Of a DNA stretch of 64,000 nucleotides, positions 4,281-50,810 are shown piece by piece. Every line of letters starts with the position of its first letter. The stretch's first letter is position 1. Source of the stretch: Scenedesmus sp. PABB004 (taxonomy: Eukaryota); contig JABVCE010000002.1 in NCBI GenBank assembly GCA_014905635.1, positions 1,860,001 to 1,924,000 of the forward strand. Reading direction: 5' to 3'. A program made the position numbers and the translations under genes. The notes under the pieces are model-generated. The model saw only the letters and a program-made list of their open reading frames with translations, did not search any database and was not told the origin of the DNA.

Positions 4281-6294
4281 ATGGCCCGCAAGTGCTTCCT
4301 CGCCGCGGCGCTCTGCGTGGCTGGTGCCGGCCTCCACGCCTTCTACGTGTCCCGCAGAGAGATGTGCCGCAAGGTGGGCGACGCGCCGCGCCCGTCCCGA
4401 GGCGGGGAGGCGCGCCGAGCGCGGGAGGGCCGCCCCCGCCGTCCCGCGCGCCGGGCGGGCCTGGTAGCTAGCCCTGCAGTTCGACACATCTGTCATCCCG
4501 CTCCGGACGCGGCGCCTGCGCGCGCGGAGCCGCTCCGCGGCCGCACGGCGCCGCGCCGCCGGCGCCGCTCTCACGGGGGCGCGTGCGGCGCCGCCGCGGG
4601 CCGGCCCGTGCGCCTGAGAGACGCGCTGTGAGCTCAGCCGCCCGCTCACGCGCCCGAGCCGCCCGCAGGCACGCCTGGCGCACCTCACCGAGCAGCACCA
4701 GAGCAAGGCGGAGCTGACCGAGGCGCCCGCGGCAGAGGACGCGCAGGTGGGTTGCGTGCTGACGCTGTGCCGGTGCCGGCTCGCCTGGCCGCCGCGAGCG
4801 CACGCGGGCTTGCACAGAGGCGTGCCGCGCGCTGCCGCCGCGCGCGGCACGAGCGCCGCCGATGCCTGCCCCCTGCCGCACCACCTGCTGCAGGCCCTCG
4901 CCGCCGCCGACCCCGAGCCCCTGAGCGCCGACGCCGACGCGCCCTGCGAGACCGCGCCCGCCGACGCCGCGCCCGCCGACGCCGCGCCCGCCGACGTGGG
5001 CACGGGCGAGGCGGCGGCCGCCGCCGCCGGCGACGTCGCGGGCGACGTCTGCGACGCGCCGGCGGTGGAGGAGGAGGAGGAGGCGGAGGAGGAGGCGCTG
5101 TGCCCGGCGCCCGAGGCGCCGGCGCTGCCGGCCATCAAGGCCCGCGCTGCCGAGCCGCGCGCCAACAGCTTCAGCGACGCGCGCGTGTGCAGCGACACCT
5201 CGCCCGCTGCGCCCAGCACGCCCGCGCGCGGCTCGGACGAGGACGACGCCGGCCACGCGGCGCGCACGCGCGTCTGCTGCACCGTCGGCGCGCAGGGCGC
5301 CCAGGTGACCAGCGCGCCAGCCTGGCCGCGGGTCACCTCGCACCCGCGCGAGCAAGCGCGCCGGCCCCACCGCCGCGGCGCTCGACGGCTGACGCCTGCC
5401 CGCACCGCACCGCGCCGCGCGCCTCGCTGCAGGTGCCCGCCGCGGCGAGCTTCGAGCCGCTGCTGGCCAGCGCCGACGCCGCGCCCTGCAACGCCGCGCC
5501 CGCCGACGTGGGCACGGGCGAGGCGGCGGCCACCGGCGACGTCGAGGCCGCCCGTGTGGTGGTGGAGGAGGAGGTGCTGCGCCGGGCGCCCGAGGTGCCC
5601 GCCGACACCCCCCTCGCCGTCAACACCGTCGCCGTCAAGGCGGCGTACAGCAGCTTCCGCGACGCGCTCGCGCGCGGCCACGCCGCGCCCGCAGCTGCGC
5701 GCAGCACGCCCGCGCGCGGCTCGCCGGAGGACATTGCCGCCTGGAAGGCCAGGATGAACACCTGGTGCGGCGACGGCTCGATGGGCGCCAAGGTGACCAG
5801 CGCGCCAGGCTGGCCGTGGCTCGCCTGGCGGTTGCGTGCGCGCGTGCGCGCCGACCCCACCGCCGCGGCGCGAGATGGCTGACGCCTGCCCGCGCCGCAC
5901 CGCTCCGCGCGCTTCGCTGCAGGTGCCCGCGGAGTCGACCTTTGAGCCGCTGCTGGCCAGCGCCGACGACGAGCCCTGGGCCGCCGACGTGGGCACGGGC
6001 GAGGCGGCGGCCGCCGCCGCCAGCGACGACGGGGCCGCCTGCGACGGCGCGCCGGCCGAGGAGGACGAGGAGGCGCTGCGCCCCGCGCCGGAGGCGTCCA
6101 AGGCGCCGGCGCTGCCCCCAATCAGGACCGCCGCAGCGCAGCGCACCAGCTTCCGCGACGCGCTCGCGCGCGGCAACGCCGCGCCCGCAGCTGCGCCGCG
6201 CACGCCCGCGCGTGGCTCGCCGGCGGACGTCGCCGGCTGGAAGGCCAGGATGAACACCTGGTGCGGCGACGGCGCAATGGCCCCGAACATCTGA
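4281..6294 (+). CDS. Unknown protein with hydrophobic N-terminus and three tandem exon-sized repeats
   Basis: ATG 4281 MARKCFLAAALCVAGAGLHAFYV; repeated peptide units ADVGTGEAAA...SFRDALARG...TPARGS...WKARMNTWCGDG in exons ~4894-5304, ~5433-5792 and ~5923-6294, separated by mutually similar introns. Confidence 0.6.
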
Positions 6295-32195: not shown

Positions 32196-32922
32196 CCGGC
32201 CGCGTGCTGGCCGGGCCCTGGCGAGTGGCGTGGCGGCTGCCCAAGCTGTCGGGCGCGCTCCTCCTGGGCAGCTGCGGTCGCGCGAGGCTGCTGGCCGGGC
32301 AGCGGTGCCTGGGCTGAGACCTGGGCCCCCGGCGGGGCGGGAGCGCTCAAGCGGGGACGGACCTCCTGCCTGCCTGCCTGCCGCGCACCAGCTCTGTGTC
32401 GGCCAGAGCGGCGAGGCGCGTGCGGCGCGGCCGCGGCGGCCGCGGCGGGAGGGCAGCGTGGCAACCGCGCGCCCCCCTGTTCCGGCGACCGCCGTGACCT
32501 GGCAGCGCACGCGCGCACGCGGGGAGCAGGCGCGTCACACAGCGCACGTTCACGCGGCGCCAAGAGCCGCCGCTGCCGATCGCCGCGCCCCAGCCTAGGC
32601 CGAGGCTGCCGCGCGCCCCGTGCCGTGCGACTCCACAACGCACGCGCGCCCCCGCGCCGGCGCCCGAGGCCGCCAGCCCAGCAGGGCAGTCACCCGGGGG
32701 TGCTGCTGCAGCACTCCTGCGGGCCACGCTGGGGTGCCGCGCGACCGCCAGGCAGTCGCCGACGCGCCAGGGCAGCTCAGCCGACGGCCGCCGCAGCACC
32801 GCCCGGCGCAGCGAGTCGCCGCCGCCGCTCCCTGCCTGCACCGGCAGAGCAAGGGGGGTCAGGGGGGGGATGCCAAAACCCCGATTCGTGCGCCGTGAAG
32901 ACGAAAAATGCAAACTGACCCG
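32196..32922 (+). repeat. ~730-bp dispersed repeat, copy 1 (inverted relative to 47018-47772)
   Basis: Long near-identical blocks with the reverse complement of 47018-47772, e.g. CCCTGGCGAGTGGCGTGGCGGCTGCCCAAGCTGTC and GATGCCAAAACCCCGAT. Confidence 0.9.
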
Positions 32923-39269: not shown

Positions 39270-40690
39270 AGCATATGTGTGTGTCGATTACATTGAGCGG
39301 GGCCCTGAGCTTTTCCGGCGCGTGCGCGTCCCACGCCGCCTGGCGGGCCTCCTGACCCGCTCCGACGACCGCACGCGTCTGTGCCCTCCATGCGAGACCA
39401 GCCGCGCGGCACGCAAGCGGGAGCGCTGCTTGCCGGCAAGCCGGCGCAGGGCGTGTAGCGAGCATGGCGCGGCCCAGGCGCGCGCAACTCACCAGCACAC
39501 CCACCTGCACGCCGCCCTTTGGTCTCGACCGCGCGCCGGACCGTGGCACAAGGCAGAAGAACCGCGGCGAGGACCAACCCCCGCGCGCCCCCGCGGCGGC
39601 CCAATGTTGTTGTTGTTGGTTACACGGCGGGGCCCGGTACGCTCCGGGCGGTTGAGCGTCCCACATCGGAACGCCTGGCGGGCCTGACCAACTCCCTCCC
39701 CGCCACCGCACGTGTCTGTGTCCTCCAAGTGCGACCAACCGAGCAGCCCGCAAGCGGGACCACATGCTGGCAAGCCGGCGCAGGGCGTGTAGCGAGCATG
39801 GCGCGGCCCAGGCGCGCGCAACTCACCAGCAAACCCACCTGCATGCCGCCCTCTGGTCTCGACCGCGCGCCGGACCGTGGCACAAGGCAGAAGAACCGCG
39901 GCGAGGACCAACCCCCGCGCGCCCCCGCCCCGCCGCCGCCCCCCGCGACCGACGCCGCCTTCTCCCCCCACCCCAGTCGCACGCACGCCCAGCCCGGCGG
40001 TGCCCCGGGACCCCACACACACCGGCCTACAGAACAGGCAGCGGGGCCGCACCAAACACACACGCCCGCACACACACAAAGAGCCTCATGCACCGGCCTG
40101 CAGCCAGATGCGCGGCGCCGCCCGTGGGTCGGCGTCGTCCGGCAGGGTGCAGAGGAAGGGGTGCTGCGCAGGGACCTGCGCAGACCACTGTCGCGGGGCC
40201 GCGCGGCACGCAACAAAGTCTGCCAGCCAGGCCCAGAACGACGCCACCGCCGCTTGCTGGGCCTGCTGCAGCCGCCGCGCGCGCTCGCTCTCGGCCGCCG
40301 CCGCTTGTCGCTGCTGCTGCGCCTCGGGGGGAGGCGCAGCGGGCAGCATGCTAGAGATGAGGCGCTGGCCCGCAGCCGCGGCGCGCTCAGCACGCCGGGC
40401 ACGCGCGGCCGGCCGCGCGTCCTCCTCCCTCTTGGCCTGGAGGGCCGCGAGGTTGGCGGCGCGCCGGCCGGTGTCCATGGCCGCGAGCGCGGCCAGGCAC
40501 ACCACGCGCCACACGCCCGAGTGCAGCCGCCGCGCGCCGGCGCGCCGCGCCGCCGGCGGTGGCGCGAGCATGAGCCAGACGTGCTCGCGGCGCAGGCGCG
40601 GCGCGCCATCGGCCGGGCGCGCACCACTCGGCGGGCAGCGAGTCGAGCATGGCTCGCACCACCGCCTGCGCGATAGGACACGCCCAAAGG
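39270..40690 (-). mobile_element. 5'-truncated non-LTR retrotransposon (L1-like LINE) fragment with two tandem 3' ends
   Basis: Minus strand LWACPIAQAVV (tail of a zf-RVT-like knuckle), then EHVWL..PP..LHSGVWRVVCLAALAAM...AVASFWAWLADF...W...VPAQHPFL, resembling chlorophyte LINE ORF2 C-termini; stop at 40086. The 3' region is duplicated (~39300-39595 vs ~39650-39925); each copy ends in TGTAA plus a short microsatellite. Confidence 0.7.
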
Positions 40691-40858
40691 TCGGGAGCCC
40701 GAAAGACCGACCCCGCCCGGGAGCCTCGAGGGAGGCCCCTGGGCCCGAGAAACGTCGGTGTGAGGGGGGTTGGTGTTTGATGTCGTGCATTTATTTATCA
40801 CACCAACGCCCCCCGCAGCAACGAGATGTTGAGGGGTCACCTGATGCGTGTGTCTCAG

Positions 40859-40930
40859 GGCTCGCTAGCACAATGGTAGTGCGTCTGACTCCAGATCAGA
40901 AGGTTGTAGGTTCGACTCCTGCGCGGGTCA
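40859..40930 (+). tRNA. trnW-CCA: tRNA-Trp (anticodon CCA), intronless
   Basis: Acceptor stem GGCTCGC/GCGGGTC, D arm GCAC-AATGGTA-GTGC, anticodon arm TCTGA-CTCCAGA-TCAGA (CCA at 40891-40893), T arm GTAGG-TTCGACT-CCTGC. Confidence 0.96.
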
Positions 40931-41143: not shown

Positions 41144-42234
41144 CAGGACGCCCTGTGTCGGCCTGAGCGGCCGCTGGGCGCGGTGCGGTCGCTGCGGCGC
41201 CGCGCCCTGCGCCGTGCCCTGCACCGCCGCCGCAGCCGTCGCTGCCGAGCGCGCATTGGTGCCCCTGGCTGCTGGTGGCCGTCTGTGGTCGCTTGCTTGT
41301 GTTCGACGACAGGCGTCTGCAGCTGCGCGGCGACGGGCGATGGAGCGCGGCAGCAGCGGCGCCGGCGGCAGCGGCAGCGGCAGCGGCGGCGCAGCGGCGC
41401 GCGGCAGCGGGCGGCGCCCGTCGCCGCGCGGCCGCCGTGCAGACGGCGCCCGCGCCGGGGCAGCCGCGCGGCGCCGGCGAGCCGGCCCCCAGCAGCGGCA
41501 GCGCCAGCAGCAGCGGCCGCGGCGGGGGGGCCGGCACGGCGCCATGCACGGCGCCATGCTGCCATCCGGGGGCACTCCAGCGCGCTCCTGCCACGCGCCC
41601 GCGGCGCTGAGCCTCTCAAGCCTCCCTGCACCCGGCTGAGCTCGCGCAGGACGGCGGCAATGGGCGGCAACGCGGCGGCGGCGCGCTGACCGCGGTGCAG
41701 CCTGCTCGTCGGCGGCGTCGAGGCATGCCCTGGGCGCGCGCTGCCGGCCCTGGACCGTGGATTGGCCACGCTGATGCCGGGCGGCACCGGCCGGGCTGCC
41801 TGCGATGCTGCACCCGCCTGCCTTCATGCCGCTCACCGCCCGCGGGTCAGCGAATCATTTTGCAGATGTGGAAGCATTTTTGGAGGTTTTCAGGGTTGTG
41901 GAGGCACGGGGAAGGTTTTGGGAGGGTTTTGGGGGGGGTTGGGAGGGTTTGGGGGGTTTGGGAGGGCCTGCTGATTGTGATTGTTGGCAGCAATGCTGCT
42001 GGGAGAGCGCAGAGCGCAGAGTGCAGAGCGCAGCGGGAGAGGCGCAGGGAGGTGCATGCAGCGTCGGCGTCGGCAGCGCCCGCAGCGCGCGCCGGCGGCG
42101 CTGGCACGGCGGCGCGCGCCTCGGGGAGGGCCCAGGCGGGCGCCGAGGTCCCAGCCCAGAGTGCATTGCAGCGCATCGCAGCCCACACAGCAGCCCCACC
42201 GCAGCGCCCCGCCCACGACGGGCCCTACGCCGGC

Positions 42235-45200
42235 ATGCAGCGCGCCGCCGCCGGCGCGGCGGCCGCGGCGGCCCGGCGGCAGCGGCAGCGGCGCCGCTGC
42301 CAGTGGCGCGTGTGCTGGCAGCGGCGCGGGTGCTGGCAGCGGCGGCACGACCGCGTGGCGCGGCCGGGGAGCAGCAGGGGAGCAGCAGGGGAGCGGGGCG
42401 CCGGCCGGCGGCATCAGAGCATCAGCAGCATCAGGAGCAGCAGCGGCGCCCCCGCTGCTCCAGCAGCAGCAGCAGCGTGCGGGCGCAGCAGGGCGCACCG
42501 CCAGAGCTTCGCCGGCCTGCGGCCGGCGCGGCAGGGGCCGCCGCCCGGCCGCGGCATGGGCGCGCCGGCGGCGGCGGCGGGCCGGCGCCGGGCCGGCGGC
42601 GGCGCTGCGGCGCTGCGGCGCCGGGCCCGGCGCCCGGCCGGGCGGCGCGGGGGCCGGCGGGCCGGCGGGCCGGCGCGAGCCCCCGCCACGGCAGGCGCGC
42701 GCGCCGCCGCGGCTGGCGGGCGATGCTGCCGCTCCCGTCGCCGGCGTGGGGCCCGCGACCGAGCTGCTCGGGAGGCGCCGCCGGCGGCCTCGCGTCGCCG
42801 CGCGCGCGTCGCCGCCGCGGCACGGCGGCGGGCCACATAAGCCCGCCGCGCCGCCCGCCCTCCCTAGCAGGCGCCCCGCCCTGAGCCAGGTCGCACCCCG
42901 CCCGTGCTGTTCACCCGCGCGCACGCGCCGCGCCGCCGCGCCATGCAGGCGCACGCGCCGCCCCCAGCCCCCGCGGGCGGCCCGCAGCACCCGCAGCCGC
43001 AGCCGCAGCCGCAGCCGCAGCAGCCGCAGCACCCGCAGCAGCAGGCGGCCGCCGCCGGCGCGGCCGGCGCGGCCGGCGCCGCCGGCCCCGCCGCCGCCGG
43101 CCCCGCCGCCGGCCCCGCCGCCGCCGGCCCCGCCGCCGCCGGCCCCGCCGCCCCCGGCCAGGCCGCCGCGGCCGGCGGCGCCGACAGCGACGGCGACACC
43201 GACGCCGACGCCGACGACGACGCCCCCCGGGCGCCGGCATCGGCCGCCCGCGCGGGCCCGAGGCCGCCGCCGCGCGCGCCGCGCAGGCGGCCGAGCTGCA
43301 GGCCAGCGCGGCCGCGGCGCGCCGCGCGGTGGTCGCGACGTACGAGCCCGACTGCGACCTCGTGTGCGTCAACGTCGCCGCGCCCGACGCGCGGCGCTGC
43401 GCGGAGCAGGCGGGCCGGCTGCTGCGCGCGCTCGTGGACAACGACACGCCCGAGGCCTGCATCGCCCACTCCGGCCAGGTGCGGCGGCGCGCCTGGGCGC
43501 GCGCGGCGCGCCTCGGCGCGCGCGCGCCTGCTTCACCGCTTCACCGCTCACCGCTGCCGCGCCGCCGCCGCCCCGCCCGCCCGCCCGCCCGCCCGCCCGG
43601 CCCCTCTGTCGCAGCCGCGCCCCGCCGGCCACCACGCCACCGCGCGGTGGACCGTGGCGGTCGTCTTCCCGCTGCGCCGCGGCGACCTCACGCCCGTCGC
43701 GGCGCTGGCGGTCGCGGGGCTCAAGCTGATTCTGCGCAGCGTCAAGCCGCTGATGCAGCCGGGCGCGGGCGGCGTCGGCGGCGCGGCCGCGACGGACCTG
43801 CAGACCAAGGCGCGCCGCGGCGCGCGCGCGGGCGGGCTGCGCGCCGCGCCCGCTCCCCGCGCCCCGCGCGCCCCGCGCGCCCCGCGCGCCCTGCGCGGCC
43901 CGACGCGGCGATGCCAAGGGGCGCGACGGGCTCGCCGAGCGTGAAGCGCGTCAGCGTGAGCGCGCGCGCAGAGTAGCCGCCGCCGCTGGCCAGGTGGAGG
44001 TACGACGGCCCCTGTGCGCGTCGTACCTCCACCTGGCCAGCGGCGGCGGCTCCCCCGCGCGGTTGGCCCGCGGGCGGGCGGGCAGGCGTGTGGGCGGCGG
44101 GCGCCGGGCCGCGGCGGCCCTTGACCGGCACGGGGATAGGCCGCCCTCTCCATATCCCCGCGCCGCGCCGCGCGCCCCGCGCGCCGCGCGCGGCCCGCCG
44201 CCCACACACGCCCACACGCCCGCCCGCCCGCCCGCCCGCCCCTGCCGACCAACCTCGCGCGCAGGGGCCATCATACCTGCACCTCGCCAGCGGCGGCGGC
44301 TACTCCGCGTGCACGCTCGCGCTGATCAGCCTGACGCTCGCCGACACCGTCGCGCCCTTTGGCATCGCCACGCTCGAGGCGCTGGCCGCGGGCGGCTGCT
44401 CGCCCGCCGACTGGCTCGACGCCGACGCCGACGCGCACAGCGCGGCGGCGGTGGCGCACCACATGGCCACGCACGCCAAGGACGAGAAGGGTGCGCGCGC
44501 GGGGGGCGCGGCGGGCGCGGCGGGCGCGGCGGGCCGCTGCGGCGCGCGCCGCCCGCGCGGCGCGCCGCCGTGGCGCGCGCGCGCGCCCCGCCCTCCTTGC
44601 TCGCCCCTGATCCCCCCCCCCCCGCCGCGCGCGCGCGCCGCGCGCCCGCAGCCGTGGCGTTCTACGCGCGCTCCGCCGACCACTACGGCGCGAGCCTCGC
44701 GCCCGGCGTGCCGGGCGCGTCGTTCTTTGACGCGCCCGGCTGCCGCATCACGCTGCAACACCTCAGCGCCACGCAGCAGCAGCGCGAGGCGCTGCGCAAG
44801 GCGACGCACGCGGGCAACACGCAGCGCATCGGTGCGCGGCGCGCGCGGCGCGCCCGCGTGCCTCCCCCCTCGCCGCCTGCTGCTGGGCGCTCGCTAGCAC
44901 ACAAGCCCGAGCTCACTCCTCGCCCCCGCCCGCCCCCGCCCGCCCCGCGACAGCGTGCCCCTTCGCCGCGGCCACGGCCGCGCGCGTGCGCTGCGCGGAG
45001 CAGGGCTTTGTGCCGCCCGCCTTCCCCGCCCCGCCGCCGCTGCCCGAGCTCCCCCCCGCGGCCACCCTGCCCTACGCCGGCGTCGAGTGCGCGGCCACGT
45101 ACTCGCTCAACGGCGCCGGTGCGGCGCGCGGCGGGGCGGCGGTTGCGCGCGCGCGCCGCTGCCGCCGCGCCCGCGCGCCCCGGGCGCGCGCACGGCGCGC

Positions 45201-46110
45201 GCGAGGCCCGGGCGCCGCGCTCACCCCCGCTCTCCCTCTGCCCCTCTGCCCCCTCTCCCTCTGCCCCTCTCCCCACCCCTCTCAGCCACCGACGTCGGCA
45301 ACCTCATCCGCGTGAGCATGTTTGACTCCATGCCGCGCCTCGGCCCGGCGCTCGACGCGCTGGTGCTGCTGCGGCACGACCTGATGGAGTGCACGACGCT
45401 CGCAATCAACCTCGGGTGCGCCGCCGCCCGCGCGCGCCGCCCGCGTGGCCGCCGCCTGCCGCGCGACGCTCGCCGCGCGCGCAAGCGACGCGCCCGTCGG
45501 CCCGCGCGTGCATCTGCCCGGGGATGGCCATCCCCGGGCAAATGCACGCGCTGTTCGACCGCATGCGCGTGCGCAAGCTGCGGAACTGGTGCGCGCGCGC
45601 GTGTGTGTGCCGCGCGCGCGCGTGTGTGTGCTGCGCGGGCGCGGGCGCGGCGCGTTGCTTGCGCGCACGGCGAGCGCCGCGCGGCAGACGGCGGCCGCGC
45701 GGCGCTCGCGCGACGGCGGCGCACCTGAGGTTGTGGACACGTGCTTGTCTGTAAACGTGTTGCCGCGCGGGGAGCGCACCGCGCACACATTCACGGAGCA
45801 CGTGCACAACCTCAGGTGCCCGCAAGCGCCGCGCGGCCGACGCCGACGCCCCGTGGCGCGCCTCTGCCCTGCTCGTGCGTGTGCGTGTGTGCTGCGGCCC
45901 GCGCCCCGCGGCCCGCGCCCCGCGGCCCGGCGCGTGTTGCAGTCGGGCACGCCGGGCGCGAGGCTCGCGCCGAGGTCCGCAGAGTGTTCGCGCACGCTGT
46001 GGGCCTCCACGGCGCGAGCCTCGCGCCCGGCACGCCGGGCGCGTCGTTCTGCGACGCGTCATTCTGCGACGCGTCGTTCTGCGACGTGCCTGACGACTGC
46101 AGCATCAAGT
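42235..46110 (+). pseudogene. Multi-exon gene of unknown family, apparently disrupted by local inverted duplications; boundaries uncertain
   Basis: Exon-like blocks with coding bias and splice sites: VATYEPDCDLVCVNV...HSGQ, RWTVAVVFPLRRG...LQTK, GPSYLHLASGGGYS...KDEKG, AFYARSADHYGASLAPG...TQRI, FVPPAFP...YSLNG, TDVGNLIRVSMFDS...AINLG, MAIPGQMHALFDRMRVRKLRNW, HTFTEHVHNL. The 3' exons lack clean acceptors. Confidence 0.5.
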
Positions 46111-46667
46111 GTGCGCTGTGGAGCCGCACGGCGCGACGCTGAGGAGCTGGTCGCCGCGCGGGATGAGCAGCCGCACAAGGTAGCGGGACCTGGTCAGGCT
46201 GATCATTCCGCGCGGCGACCAGCTCGACCGCAGCCCTTCTCCACCTTGCTCAGCTCGACCGTGACGCCGCCCAGGCCCCAGGACGCGAGGGCGCCGGGCC
46301 TTGCGGCAGCCAGAGCACGCAGCACGGCGTGCGTGAGGCGGCGCGTACGCGGCTGGAGGTCGAGCATCGGCTGGCGCGCGCGCGCGCGGGGCACCTCGGC
46401 GGGCCCGCGCGCGCGCGCGCGCTTGCGCGCAGCGCCGGCCGCCCTCCCAGCGCGCACGCGCCGCCGCACGCACCTCTGCTGGCTGTTGCCACGCCGCCGA
46501 CATCGCGCGCACGTCCTCGGCGCAGGCGATGTTGCGCATGTGCAGCTTGGACGCGAGGCGCACCAGCAGCGCGACGCTGAGGAGCTGGTCGCCGCGCGGG
46601 ATGATGAGCCGCACTAGGAAGCGGGAGCTTCCAGGTCCGGCTGATCATTCCGCGCGGCGACCAGCTC
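43975..46667. other. Cluster of fold-back inverted repeats (candidate hairpin-RNA/MIRNA array)
   Basis: Stems checked base by base at 43975-44051, 44126-44165, 45504-45551, 45721-45819, 45951-46031, 46144-46225 and 46582-46667. Confidence 0.8.
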
Positions 46668-47017
46668 GACCGTGACGCCGCCCAGGCCCCAGGGCGCGAG
46701 GGCGCCGGGCAGGGTCGCGACGACGCCGTTGACCGAGCACTTCTTCTCCTTGGTCGCGCTGGTAATGTTGTCGACCACCAGCATCGTGCGTCACCGACGT
46801 CACCATGACGACCAAGCAGCAGAGCTGCTCTTTCACCCCAGCCCCAGCCATGCCTTGAACGTGCTGTGGCCCTCCAGCAGCCAGAGCACGCAGCACGGCG
46901 TGCATGAGGCAGCGCGTAGACGGCACCAGGTCGAGCATCGGCTGGCTCGTGCGCGCCGCGTCGCGGTGCTCGCGCCCCTGCATCTGGTGGACCAGATGAC
47001 GCGGTTCGCCGGCGTCA

Positions 47018-47772
47018 CGGGTCAGTTTTGCTTTATTGCAGCTTCAGGGTTCACGGATCGGGGTTTTGGCATCACCCCTGCCCCCCCCCCCCTGACCCCC
47101 CTGCCTCTGCTGGTGCGGGCAGGGAGCGGCGGCGGCGACTCGCTGCGCCGGGCAGTGCTGCGGCGGCCGTCGGCCGAGCCGCCCCGGCGCGTCGGCGACT
47201 GCCTGGCGGTTGCGCGGCACCCCGGCGTGGCCCGCAGGAGCGCTGCAGCATCACCCCCGGGTGACTGCCCTGCTGGGCTGGCTGGCGGCCCCGGGCGCCC
47301 GCGCGCGGGTGTGCGCGTGCGTTGTGGAGTCGCACGGGGCGCGGCAGCCTCGGCCAGGCCTAGGCTGGGGCGCGCGCGGCGATCGGCGGCGGCGGCGGCT
47401 CTTGGCGCGGCGTGAACGCGCGCTGTGTGACGCACCTGCTCCCCGCGTGCGCGCGTGCGCTGCCGGGTCACGGCGGTCACCGGAACAGGGGGGCGCGCGG
47501 TTGCCTCGCTCCCCTCCCGCCGCGGCCGCCGCGGCCGCGCTGCACGCGCCTCGCCGCTCCAGCCGACACAGAGCTGGTGCGCGGCAGGCAGGCAGGGGGG
47601 TCCGTCCGCTTGAGCGCTTGAGCGCGCCCGCCCCGCCGGGGCCCAGGTCTCAGCCCAGGCACCGCTGCCCAGCCAGCAGCCCTCGCGCGACCGCAGCTGC
47701 CCAGGAGGAGCGCGCCTGACAGCTTGGGCAGCCGCCACGCCACTCGCCAGGGCGCGGCCAGCACGCGGCCGG
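47018..47772 (-). repeat. ~750-bp dispersed repeat, copy 2
   Basis: Reverse complement aligns along its length with 32196-32922, with scattered substitutions and small indels. Confidence 0.9.
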
Positions 47773-48258
47773 AGGAGCCAGCCGCGACCGGCGCTCCGCG
47801 CAGCACTGTTCGTCGTCGGCGCACGAGTGCAGTTTTGAGTAGGACAAGCAGCTCAGACGTCGTGTGCGCCGGCGCTGGGTCTTTGGCGCACGGGGTCGGC
47901 GGCGCGCAGGGCGTCGCGGCATCGCGAGCCGCGAGCGCGCCCAGGCGCGCGCACGGTGCCCGGCAGCACGCGGCGGCTCGTCTGCAGCTTGCTATGCTTG
48001 CATAGCAGCCCATAAAGCCATCAGGTAAGCCGCAGGGGCAATACGCCGGGCGCGGCGCCTGGTCGGCCCGGGGCTGGTCGGCCCGGGCCAGCCCGGCAGA
48101 TGGCGCTGCGCGGGCCCCTCGCGGCCACAGGCGGCAGTCACGGTGCTCTGACCAGCCCCGAATCCCGTCCCCGCCACGTGCAGGCGGGCCCGGTGCATGC
48201 GCACGCGCGTCGGCGCGCGGCGCGAGCAGCGGCGGCGGCAGCGGCGCGGTGCGCGCCC

Positions 48259-50810
48259 ATGACCCGGCGGCGGCCCGGCGCGTGCGCCCGGCTGCTGGCG
48301 CTAGCGGGACTGGCCTGCCTGGCGGCGCTCGGCGCGGCCTGCCCGTACCATGCGGCACACGACGCGGAGCGCGGCGAGCTCGGGCTGCTGCGGCCAGGCG
48401 GCCCGGAACGCGGCGCCGACCCCGCGGCGGCGGCGGCGGCGGCGGCGGCCGAGCCGGAGCGCATAGAGTTTGAAGACTTCAGCGACCGCGACTTCCTGGC
48501 CAGCATGGCGCCGGCGCGGCGGCTGCTGGACGCCAACGGCGGGCCGCCGCGCGCGAGCGCCCCGGGCCGCGCTGCGGCGCGCGGCACGTCGCGCCGGAGG
48601 AGCACAGCGCCGTGGCCGCGCGGCTCGCGGCCGCGCGGCAGCGGCCGCGGCCGCCGCCGGCTTCCGCGCGGCTCGCGCGCCCGGGGTCATGTCGATCGCG
48701 TCCGCGCCGGGGGGCGACCCCGGCGACGGCGGCGCCCTGCCGGCGCACAGCGTGGACCTCTATTTCCACGTAGTCTCCGGCAGCGGCGTCAACAGCACCG
48801 TGGCCGCGCCGCCCGAGCTCATCGCGGAGCAGCTCGGCGTGATGAACGCGGCGTACGGCGGGCACAACATACGATTCCTGCTCAAGGCGCGGCGCGGCGC
48901 CGGGGAGGGCAGGGCGGCGCGGCGCCGGGGCGGGAGAGCGGCGCGGCGCGGCGCGGCGCCGGGGCGAGGGCGGCGCAGTGCGTGTTGGGCGGCCGCAGCG
49001 GCCGGCGCGCCGTGTGCGCGAGGGCGGGGCCCGCGGGAGCGCGGAGCCCGCCCGGGCCGTCCGCGCGGCTGACCGGCCGCGCCCGCCGCCGCGCGCCGCG
49101 CGCCGCGCGCGCAGGGTGTGACGCGCGTGCTGAGCGAGGCGTGGGCGGTGACGGAGATCAACAGCGCGGCCGAGGACGCGATGAAGGCGCGCCTGCGGCG
49201 GTGCGTGCGCGCGCGCGCGCGGGCGGCCCTCGCGGCGGCCGGGCGGCTCGCCGGCGCCGGCGCTGCCGGCGCTGGCACGCTCGTCCGACGCCGCCGCGGC
49301 GCGTGCGCGCAGGGGCGGCGCGGCGGCGCTGAACATCTACATCATCCGCCCCGCGAGCGGCACGCTCGGCTGGTCGACCTTCCCCTGGGAGATGGCCAAG
49401 CTGGGCGTCGGGTTTGACGGCGTCGTCGTGCACGTCGGCACGCTGCCGGGCGGGACGATGGCGCCCTACAACCGGGGCTACACTATGGTGCACGAGGTGC
49501 GCCGCCAGACAGGCGGGCGGCGCGGGGCGCACCACGCCGCCTGCGGCCGCGAGCTCCGCGGGCCCTGGGTCCGGGCCGGGCGTCTGCGCCCCCGCCGCCG
49601 ACGCCCTCCGCGCGGCCCCGCCCCCGGCCGCCCCTCGCCTCGCCGCGCCGCGCGCCAGGTCGGGCACTGGCTGGGCCTGCTGCACGTGTTTGAGAACGGC
49701 TGCAGCGCCGCCGGCGACAGCGTCGACGACACGCCGCCCCAGGCGAGCGCGGCGTACGGCTGCCCGCTGCAGCGCGACACCTGCCCCGGCGGCGGGCGCG
49801 ACCCGGTGACCAACTACATGGGGTACACCGATGATGCCTGCATGACCGGCTTCACGCGCGGCCAGGCGGAGCGCATCCTGGCGATGTGGGACGTCTACCG
49901 CGCCGATGGCGGCGACGAGGCCCCGCCGCCGTTGCCGGCGCCGGGCGGCGCAGTCGAGGAGAGCGGCACCGGCAACGCGATGCCCGCGCCGCTCGCGTCG
50001 GCGGCGGCGGCGGGCGCCGCGGTGCCGCTGGGCCTGCCCCCCGCGGCGGCGGCCGCCGGCGACGCGGCCGCGCCCGGCACGCCCGCGGCGGGCTGGCTGC
50101 CGGTGCTGCCGCCCGGCGGGGGCGCCGGCGCGGCGGGCGCCGCGGTGGGCGTCGCGTCGTTCGAGGCGCTCACGTACGAGGCCGCGCCCGCGCCCGCCGA
50201 CCCGGCGGCGCTCTTTGCAGCGCAGCAGGCGGCCGCGCTCGCCGCGGCGCAGGGGCAGGTGCCACGGCCGGTCCCCGTGTACGAGGCGCCGCCCAGCAGC
50301 GCCGCGGCGCTGGGCGCGGGCGTGCCCGTGCAGCAGGCGGGTCAGGTGTACCAGCCCTTCGCCTCGCCGGCGCAGCCGTACCAACAGCAGGCGCTGCCCG
50401 GCACGACGTGGCAGGCCTGGCCGACGCACTCGGCGCCGCGCCCCTACTACGCCACCACCGGCGGCGGCCCGCCCCAGGCGTTTGCGCAGCTCGCGCAGCC
50501 GGCGCCGCAGCCGAGCGCGGCGCCGCTCATCCTCGGCCGGCCGCTGCCCAGCCAGGGTGGCGGCCCGGGGCAGCTGGGCGCGCTGCTGGCGGCCATGGGC
50601 AGCAGCGGCCGGCGGCGCACGGGCAGCGCGCAGGCGGAGCTGGCGGCTGCGGAGCTGGCGGCCGTGGAGCTTGCGGCCGCGGAGCTGGCGGCCGTGGAGC
50701 TGGGGGCCGCGGAGCTGCCGGCGGGCATCGTCCCGCATGCCGAGGCGGCGGGCGCGCGGCTGGCCAGCGGCCGGCGGCTGGCGGGCGAGGCGGCGTGCGG
50801 CAGCGCTTGA
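48259..50810 (+). CDS. Secreted metzincin zinc metalloprotease, M43 (ulilysin/pappalysin-like), with low-complexity C-terminal tail
   Basis: Signal-like LLALAGLACLAALG, VDLYFHVV, TLGWSTFPW, DGVV, zinc motif HEVGHWLGLLHVF, VDDTPPQ and Met-turn NYMGY; two 1-nt shifts are needed in the prodomain (~48543 and ~48638). Confidence 0.9.

Follow-up and report, generated by a model that had tools for sequence, protein, structure and literature searches.

Nested hairpins in a Scenedesmus gene as probable scars of repeated small inverted duplications

A 64-kb stretch of the Scenedesmus sp. PABB004 genome (the window; positions are counted from its first letter) carries seven hairpins crowded into positions 43975-46667, and each hairpin arm could be traced to sequence no more than about 1.3 kb away that is present in inverted plus direct orientation. 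We consider it probable that this local pile-up of small inverted duplications represents the scars of repeated template-switch or fold-back synthesis in dispensable DNA. The observations that bear on this reading are the structures themselves, their sources, nesting and differing ages, the absence of compensatory changes and a broken open reading frame (ORF). The features are listed in Table 1.

Table 1. Features of the hairpin patch and its flank, in window coordinates
Feature	Position	Strand	Description
P1, large decayed palindrome	43879..44396	.	arms ~260 nt; self-BLAST inverted on itself, 72% over 544 columns
Pseudo-exon A'	43907..44020	-	inverted copy of 44256-44369 (9 nt of intron and 5' part of exon A), 84% over 114 nt
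H1	43975-44051		33-bp perfect stem, -82.8 kcal/mol, z -14.2
H7	44126-44165		13-bp stem, z -3.5
Exon A, orphan gene U	44265..44490	+	99% identity to P0001; GC3 0.96
Exon B, gene U	44652..44831	+	tblastn 100%; GC3 0.97
Inverted repeat	45407..45733	.	45407-45494 copied inverted at 45649-45733, 77/88 identical
H2	45504-45551		48-nt near-perfect palindrome, z -7.8
H3	45721-45819		bulged fold-back, z -6.7
H4 and B'	45946..46139	+	27/27 and 46/50 to exon B; tblastn E 9e-5
H4	45951-46031		22-bp perfect stem, z -11.3
Partial, rearranged duplicate of 46569-46956, with H5 inside	46131..46385	-	direct matches 90%, 98%, 89%
H5	46144-46225		z -10.5
Gene V, unannotated coding-like ORF, interrupted by H6	46470..46784	-	GC3 0.98 and 0.91 for its halves
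H6	46582-46667		41-nt arms, 4-nt loop, z -12.4
Inverted segmental duplicate of 32196-32922	47018..47772	+	~91% over 695 nt and 82% over 56 nt, self-BLAST

An earlier sequence-only reading of this DNA had pointed out the seven hairpins, and all of them fold as it described. When each was compared with 200 dinucleotide shuffles, not one shuffle folded as well as the native sequence (0/200 for each of the seven), with z-scores from -3.5 to -14.2. The same reading had seen nothing comparable elsewhere in the window, which was borne out by stem counts, a GC-corrected scan of minimum free energy (MFE) and a self-BLAST of the 64 kb. All four perfect stems of at least 18 bp with a loop of at most 100 nt fall inside 43975-46667, as do 10 of the 26 stems of at least 14 bp. 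In the scan, for which the MFE of 3196 windows of 100 nt was regressed on GC, the region makes up 4.3% of the windows and holds all nine with z < -3 and 15 of the 18 with z < -2.5. Furthermore, inverted self-matches were confined to 43.9-46.7 kb, save for one inverted segmental duplication 14 kb distant. The hairpins are mutually unrelated except for the H5/H6 pair, and no perfect 21-mer of any of the seven was found elsewhere in the 64-kb window.

The genome has a GC content of 78.5%, and the patch at 43975-46667 lies slightly below its surroundings in GC. The assembly is reported to consist of 77 contigs with an N50 of 1.3 Mb, i.e. of long-read scale (PMC12571836). All seven hairpins lie inside two annotated 'introns' of one gene model. 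This model is probably chimeric, with an orphan N-terminal part (gene U) joined to an M43 peptidase. Because the gene model looks chimeric, the annotated 1.46-kb 'intron' with five of the hairpins is probably no real intron. The locus also draws attention to a mis-built gene model. Pfam searches of 114 stop-to-stop ORFs from 37.9-54.0 kb matched only Peptidase_M43 (49185-50807) and PP2C; no family was found for 42-48 kb with these ORFs or with single exons, and 27 ORFs from 28-38 kb gave Mpp10, an alpha/beta hydrolase and a weak TFIIA match. For the 363-aa part encoded by gene U, a protein search among proteins of 199-636 aa found no homologue, and the ESM Atlas returned a single match at 0.75, which is under any useful level. 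Among metagenome loci, 586 pattern matches to exon A were obtained, and none was confirmed. The right edge of the rearranged patch is marked by the 47018-47772 duplicate, whose source directly follows a minus-strand gene's stop codon.

Exon A of gene U is the source of both pseudo-exon A' and H1. The arms of P1 align at 196 of 266 positions (74% identical), and its left arm repeats, in inverted orientation, the 3' part of intron 3 together with the first ~130 nt of exon A; by tblastn, residues 133-188 of P0001 match 44074-43907. The centre of P1 is H7, which consists of intron sequence, not exon. H1 is a secondary inverted duplication within the left arm (43965-44007 against 44019-44061, 40/43, with 33/33 in the stem); its 11-nt loop contains the copied 3' splice-site junction, and exon A sequence was also copied to 44021-44059 (34/39). 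The new 43-nt arm of H1 suggests the replacement of ~35-40 nt of intron instead of a mere gain in length, as judged by an internal proxy for the ancestral state (the right versus the left arm of P1). Differences between A' and exon A, read off the alignment, are mostly AT-to-GC. All five differences in the H1 stem part of A' are synonymous; selection on this part was considered and rejected, since the pattern reflects AT-to-GC drift where A/T lay and is not significant (A/T sites changed, counted by eye: 2 of 12 in the stem part versus 7 of 19 outside).

Exon B gave rise to the arms of H4 and to B'. The left arm of H4 (45946-45972) matches exon B at 44686-44712 in reverse complement without a single mismatch, and the 46/50 match lies at 46009-46058. 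In B' itself (about 45989-46139), exon B is repeated in direct orientation and has diverged; B' ends at a TGA at 46140-46142 and contains an in-frame tandem of three 15-nt units (46040-46086; TRF). Between B' and exon B, a GT-to-AC change at the centre of a quasi-palindrome corresponds to an inverted loop. A retrocopy had been suggested by a tblastn alignment that spans the exon A/B junction; this was rejected, as the first 16 aligned residues hold four identities and lie over the inverted arm.

In the inverted repeat at 45407-45733, the segment that was copied comprises the end of exon D and the first 78 nt of the intron of exon D, and the spacer contains H2 and candidate exon E. H2 is the core of a palindrome at 45471-45582 (45/58, 78%), and its right arm runs in frame into an unannotated candidate exon that extends to 45590 and is followed by GTGCGC; GC3 at 45545-45589 is 15/15. 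H3 is the core of another palindrome at 45674-45859 (55/74; arms given as 70%) and arose when the exon D/intron junction, already copied in inverted orientation, was inverted again (45797-45859). The earlier statement that at least four hairpins use exons of the host gene is only partly correct. It holds for H1 and H4; in H3, exon D contributes no more than its final ~10 nt, the remainder being intron, H2 overlaps an unannotated candidate exon, H5 and H6 come from an unannotated coding-like ORF on the opposite strand, and H7 is intronic. The proposed origin by inverted duplication does hold, with arms that match exon and intron sequence of the locus itself.

H5 and H6 both derive from the coding-like minus-strand ORF of gene V. 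The centre of H6 holds a TAG, and when either of its 41-nt arms is removed, a 91-codon minus-strand frame is open (GC3 0.95 or 0.91). The inverted duplication of H6 therefore put a stop codon into an otherwise open ORF, which points to damage rather than design. A homologue search with the first half of gene V found none. The second half gave two weak HMMER matches (E 1e-6 and 1e-5) to repetitive proteins, which were set aside as uninformative; one of these proteins carries a marginal ATG101 match that is absent from the ORFs of the window. H5 and H6 go back to one palindrome that is older than the later duplication, and the paralogous copies have since acquired independent mutations. They differ at six stem positions and by one 4-nt indel, and each of the six differences breaks a pair in one copy. 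Compensatory change was found at none of the six informative sites of this one pair (0/6), and stem divergence (~7%) is the same as that of the flanks; together these results argue that the stems are under no structural constraint.

The same hairpins could be read as a nascent or functional hairpin-RNA/miRNA cluster, in which a Dicer-like enzyme, as in Chlamydomonas, would cut the hairpins and so reduce the host mRNA in cis and/or release siRNAs against exons A and B of that gene, with autoregulation as the outcome. We regard this as rather unlikely. It would fit the 22-41 bp stems with their short loops and very low free energy, the location of all hairpins in annotated introns of one gene model, and the antisense content of two of them, as two 21-mers of H4 are perfectly antisense to exon B and others in H1 are antisense to exon A with 1-3 mismatches. 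Perfect, young hairpins antisense to host exons are also what a selected hairpin-RNA locus would look like. In Chlamydomonas, introns and UTRs within coding RNAs are reported as the origin of most miRNAs, and hairpin-bearing mRNAs as direct targets of DCL3 cleavage (PMC4817775). Rfam yielded no family at the gathering threshold, and the five sub-threshold matches (best mir-988, 31.6 bits versus 72) to miRNA precursors indicate generic hairpin likeness only. However, about 4-5 of the seven hairpins (H2, H3, H5, H6 and H7) have no antisense 21-mer to exons of gene U at up to three mismatches, older palindromes have decayed to 67-78% arm identity, H5 and H6 show no compensatory change, and the 'intron' that holds five of the hairpins is itself doubtful. 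Nor was a paralogous target family found in protein searches or by tblastn in the window. For exon A, searches of annotated proteins of 138-2000 aa turned up nothing besides the model of gene U itself (1 of 2431 candidates), and within the 64-kb window tblastn returned only local fragments; as the searches were word-based, this is weak evidence. The sequence-only reading had envisaged a gene copy under conversion into a polycistronic small-RNA locus that could silence its own family, and neither a spare copy nor a family was upheld: the hairpins draw on exons of the sole copy that could be detected, and no family was visible in these searches. A combined scheme, in which serial template switching would have built a self-targeting cluster out of the introns and 3' region of this orphan gene, whose Dicer-like pre-mRNA cleavage, together with siRNAs from H4 and H1, would autoregulate or progressively silence gene U, appears unlikely to us. 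If true, such a cluster would capture in nature how replication errors give birth to a new hairpin-RNA/miRNA gene in a green alga, each palindrome paving the way for further ones.

Serial template switching, which we prefer, might have proceeded as follows. During replication or repair, a DNA-level template switch or fold-back would copy 20-260 nt in inverted orientation beside the template, and each new inverted copy would create a palindrome that is perfect at first. Later switches would take earlier products as template and so produce nesting, and older palindromes would decay by point mutation and GC-biased drift. One such event would have disrupted the minus-strand ORF. The hairpins would then be mainly mutational by-products, tolerated in dispensable DNA of an orphan gene, namely an enlarged intron and its 3' flank, and existing palindromes would probably promote more switching and hence clustering. 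They could still be raw material for small RNAs: on transcription, H4 and H1 could serve directly as hairpin-RNA precursors aimed at exons B and A of the host gene. Inverted fragments of at least 15 nt that come from adjacent sequence and pair perfectly are present in H1 (33/33) and H4 (22/22, and 27/27 to its source). Template switching is reported to make perfect hairpins in single events and to invert loops (PMC10710096), and inverted repeats are reported to be homogenised and expanded by it (PMC13100816). At least seven events in 2.8 kb are not expected of uniform mutation, and self-propagation or relaxed selection has to be assumed; junction microhomologies carry no information in DNA of 80% GC. 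We infer the template-switch mechanism, neutrality and self-propagation.

The enclosing palindromes are decayed, with arm identities of 67-88%; the one at 46144-46667 stands at 67%. These many levels of arm identity indicate events of different ages. It is therefore quite unlikely that the whole patchwork arose from one catastrophic serial-switch event of the MMBIR/FoSTeS type. Multi-switch events classically leave direct-inverted-direct triplets of short segments, and for exon A, exon B and the exon D junction there are two extra copies apiece, one inverted and one direct; the patch also has a direct partial duplication and the 755-nt inverted segmental duplicate from 14 kb away. However, copy-to-source identity, which is noisy for short segments, ranges from 100% (27/27) and 33/33 down to 67-74%, and the H5/H6 palindrome predates a later duplication. 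Several ages imply several events rather than one.

Divergence also bears on whether the patch is real DNA. An assembly or polishing artefact, caused by long reads that are fold-back chimeras or by errors in the local reassembly of very GC-rich sequence, is conceivable for a long-read-scale assembly of a hard-to-sequence genome with 78.5% GC. Fold-back chimeras are kb-scale palindromes with identical arms, whereas the arms here are 20-260 nt, nested and diverged to 67%-93%. In addition, the differences follow a biological pattern (AT-to-GC drift in the pseudo-exon and in-frame relations to ORFs), and the paralogous H5 and H6 copies have mutated independently. We therefore judge an artefact very unlikely.

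A gene-fragment-capturing or fold-back transposable element (Helitron, Pack-type or MITE-like) would fit the region's patchwork of gene pieces, which lie in both orientations and include terminal-hairpin-like structures, and its slightly lower GC. Yet every fragment here comes from immediate neighbours, not from unlinked genes, and the patch is not bounded by terminal inverted repeats. Pfam detected no transposon or transposase domain and no Rep/helicase domain across 28-52.8 kb, and the 64-kb window contains no second copy. Repeats are reported to make up 1.31% of the Scenedesmus sp. PABB004 genome (PMC12571836). Such an element is thus a very improbable source of the patch.

If it is real DNA, the patch is a compact natural record of inverted duplications arising, nesting and decaying in an 80% GC genome. 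It also illustrates that such duplications can break an ORF, enlarge an intron and yield, in a single step, perfect hairpins antisense to exons, which have been proposed as the raw material from which new miRNAs arise. For now we view the locus as a mutational curiosity and not as a demonstrated regulatory system.

Under the 2004 model of Allen et al., plant MIRNA/hpRNA genes are said to originate by inverted duplication. Our locus resembles these genes in that arms are homologous to exons of a coding gene (here H1 and H4) and that young ones are long and near-perfect, but the source here is the host gene in cis rather than a paralogue, and most arms include intron. DUP-TRP/INV-DUP and FoSTeS/MMBIR rearrangements share the direct-inverted-direct copies from nearby templates, while the scale here is 10^1-10^2 nt instead of 10^4-10^6 nt and multiple ages are present. 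The DCL3-cleaved hairpins of Chlamydomonas (Valli et al., 2016, PMC4817775) are similar in being intron or UTR stem-loops of Chlorophyceae for which cleavage in cis is possible; in contrast to them, the PABB004 hairpins show decay, not conservation. The likeness extends to template-switch mutations (Ripley's quasi-palindrome and the four-point model of Loytynoja and Goldman; Monttinen et al., 2023, PMC10710096) in the adjacent inverted copies, one-step perfect stems, inversion of the centre (GT to AC in B') and hairpins in intronic or transcribed DNA that could seed miRNA genes. Unlike typical template-switch mutations, however, at least seven events are stacked and nested here in 2.8 kb, and some of the arms are longer, at 88-260 nt.

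The sequence-only reading had described seven stem-loops, H1 to H7, and all of them were found in place and folding as claimed. When each hairpin was compared with 200 dinucleotide-preserving shuffles, z-scores ranged from -3.5 to -14.2, and none of the 200 shuffles matched the real folding strength in any of the seven cases. Since the window is ~80% GC throughout, strong folding is the background here, and the seven hairpins still exceed it. The further claim that nothing comparable exists elsewhere in the window was borne out by a window-wide search for perfect stems (loop ≤100 nt) and by a GC-corrected folding scan (3196 overlapping 100-nt windows, MFE regressed on GC). All four perfect stems of at least 18 bp (33, 22, 18 and 18 bp) lie in the hairpin region, as do 10 of the 26 stems of at least 14 bp (within 43975-46667); the others are no longer than 17 bp and consist of GC-only simple sequence. 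The hairpin region, which has 4.3% of the scanned 100-nt windows, contains 9/9 of those whose residual z falls below -3 and 15/18 of those below -2.5.

Hairpins, with folding z-scores, and blocks of the duplication that carries H5 and H6
Feature	Position	Matching segment	Identity	z-score
H1	43975-44051			-14.2
H7 (13-bp)	44126-44165			-3.5
H2	45504-45551			-7.8
H3	45721-45819			-6.7
H4	45951-46031			-11.3
H5	46144-46225			-10.5
H6	46582-46667			-12.4
Duplication block 1	46131-46230	46569-46672	90%	
Duplication block 2	46251-46299	46662-46710	98%	
Duplication block 3	46306-46385	46877-46956	89%	

Exon A (44256-44489) shows 99% identity to the nr protein MEP1 of Scenedesmus sp. PABB004 (1093 aa), and the remaining exons of that protein match the window at 100%. 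In the annotated model all seven hairpins are intronic, H1 and H7 lying within intron 43810-44264 and H2-H6 within a 1.46-kb 'intron' (45417-46881). The MEP1 model (41774-50807, +) looks chimeric, with an orphan N-terminal part joined to an M43 peptidase, because no Pfam family, no homologue in protein searches and no Atlas neighbour was found for its first ~390 residues, the C-terminal M43 half has its own Met and signal-peptide-like start near 48259, and the model lacks an M43 segment of strong coding character (48725-48922). The orphan part, gene U, is coding, as indicated by an exon GC3 of 0.95-1.00 versus a GC2 of 0.40-0.69. Its exons (to 45416) are linked to the peptidase via exon 46882-47022, whose strand is ambiguous (GC by codon position 0.85/0.49/0.81, either strand). 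A local low-GC island (40700-40860; 0.55-0.61 in 100-nt windows, elsewhere ~80%) lies upstream of the annotated start. A published table (PMC12571836) lists the assembly as 39.8 Mb in 77 contigs, with 78.5% GC, 1.31% repeats and 7,092 genes.

Each hairpin arm was traced to a source within about 1.3 kb, and the hairpins are the cores of larger decayed palindromes. The structural part of the earlier proposal, that the gene duplicated its own sequence in inverted orientation, is upheld. The large palindrome P1 (43879-44396), centred on H7, consists of two ~260-nt arms that agree at 196/266 positions. The left arm repeats, in inverted orientation, the intron's 3' part together with ~130 nt from the start of exon A, with 84% identity over the exon portion. 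This insertion accounts for an intron of 455 nt versus 121-167 nt in the other four. The 33-bp perfect stem of H1 came from a second inverted duplication inside the P1 left arm (43965-44007 / 44019-44061, 40/43). With the P1 right arm as ancestor proxy, the new arm takes the place of ~35-40 nt at the end of the copied intron without added length, and the H1 loop contains the copied 3' splice junction. In A', the inverted copy of exon A (43907-44020, -), the first 15 codons are kept with third-position differences only (5/5), and the next 22 carry 13 base differences, mainly at first positions and mainly AT to GC; counted by eye, 2/12 versus 7/19 A/T sites were changed. Drift mainly from AT to GC, as judged by eye from the arm alignment, is the pattern expected of non-coding DNA in this genome, and A' looks like a dead exon copy under GC-biased drift, not selection. 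Such arm differences look biological, and the arms combine short length, nesting and divergence; on these internal grounds an assembly artefact is very unlikely.

The junction of exon D with its intron (45407-45494; ~10 nt of exon end and 78 nt of intron start) has an inverted copy at 45649-45733 (77/88), re-inversion of which gave H3 (45745-45674 versus 45797-45859, 55/74). H2 sits in the spacer between the exon D junction arms as the core of palindrome 45471-45582, and its right arm continues in frame into 15 codons (GC3 15/15) followed by GTGCGC, a candidate unannotated exon. The reverse complement of the H4 left arm (45946-45972) matches exon B at 44686-44712 without a difference (27/27). 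The right arm of H4 is part of B', which copies exon B in direct orientation but has diverged from it (46/50 in the core, 80% over 79 nt) and has a GT to AC change at the quasi-palindrome centre that equals an inversion of the centre. B' has an in-frame 15-nt x3 tandem at 46040-46086 (+; TRF, 93% matches), is open to TGA at 46140-46142 and could be a terminal exon of gene U.

H5 and H6 are paralogues within a direct rearranged duplication, in surroundings with a minus-strand coding signature (GC3 0.98 and 0.91). A minus-strand ORF from ATG 46784 hits TAG at the H6 centre; when either 41-nt H6 arm is removed, a 91-codon frame is open and ends at a donor-like site, GAG|GTGCGT (GC3 0.95 without arm 46627-46667, 0.91 without the other). 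H6 is thus a 41-nt inverted duplication within a once continuous exon, and it is older than the duplication that gave H5. The two differ by six stem differences and one 4-nt indel, each breaking a pair in one copy; in this one hairpin pair 0/6 differences are compensatory, and the stems have diverged by about 7%, just as much as the flanks. At the right edge of the patch, 47018-47772 (+) repeats 32196-32922 (-) in inverted orientation (about 91%), a segmental duplication of 755 nt with copies 14 kb apart; the latter copy starts where the stop codon of a gene on the minus strand ends, and a 3'-flank or UTR-like block was thereby copied to the patch edge. Two other direct repeats (5471-6280 and 4959-5784, 76%; 39672-39928 and 39337-39594, 89%) are without inverted structure.

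The uncompensated stem differences argue against a hairpin-RNA cluster, whether functional or nascent, that acts on the host gene, a reading we consider possible but unlikely. Support from this locus is limited to sequence complementarity: H4 has 21-mers that are perfectly antisense to exon B, and 21-mers of H1 match exon A with 1-3 mismatches. A precedent exists in Chlamydomonas, where Dicer-like 3 processes intron/UTR hairpins of coding RNAs and can directly lower host mRNA (PMC4817775). Against it, 4/7 hairpins lack an antisense match to gene U exons, the older palindromes are merely decaying, most hairpins lie within the dubious 'intron', and Rfam matches were sub-threshold and of generic miRNA-hairpin type (best 31.6 bits, threshold 72). 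No paralogous family was found in protein searches or a translated search of the window. The functional part of the earlier proposal, a gene copy on its way to silencing its family as a polycistronic locus, does not hold on present evidence.

We favour, with some reserve, a hotspot at which template-switch or fold-back duplications arose serially and were tolerated, the DNA being dispensable. The dispensable DNA would comprise the enlarged intron, the 3' flank of a gene and the broken minus-strand ORF, and existing palindromes probably promote new ones. Identity of copy to source varies between 100% and 33/33 at one extreme and 67-74% at the other, and one palindrome is older than a later duplication. 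Several events of different ages are therefore required (the ages being noisy on short segments), which makes a single multi-switch event quite unlikely. A transposon origin is hardly credible: the hairpins share no relationship except H5/H6, their perfect 21-mers were not found elsewhere in the window, no transposon domain was found in 28-52.8 kb, and the fragments come from immediate neighbours and not from unlinked genes, which argues against a mobile element. What recurs is an inverted copy adjoining a direct one across a short loop, with perfect pairing in the young cases. Taken with one inverted centre and one replacement that apparently left the length unchanged, this pattern fits replication-linked template switching. 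Published work documents that template switching makes whole hairpins in one event and inverts loops (PMC10710096), and that it homogenises and expands inverted repeats (PMC13100816). We file this locus with the known template-switch-type palindromes, among which it is unusual in density, nesting and exon content.
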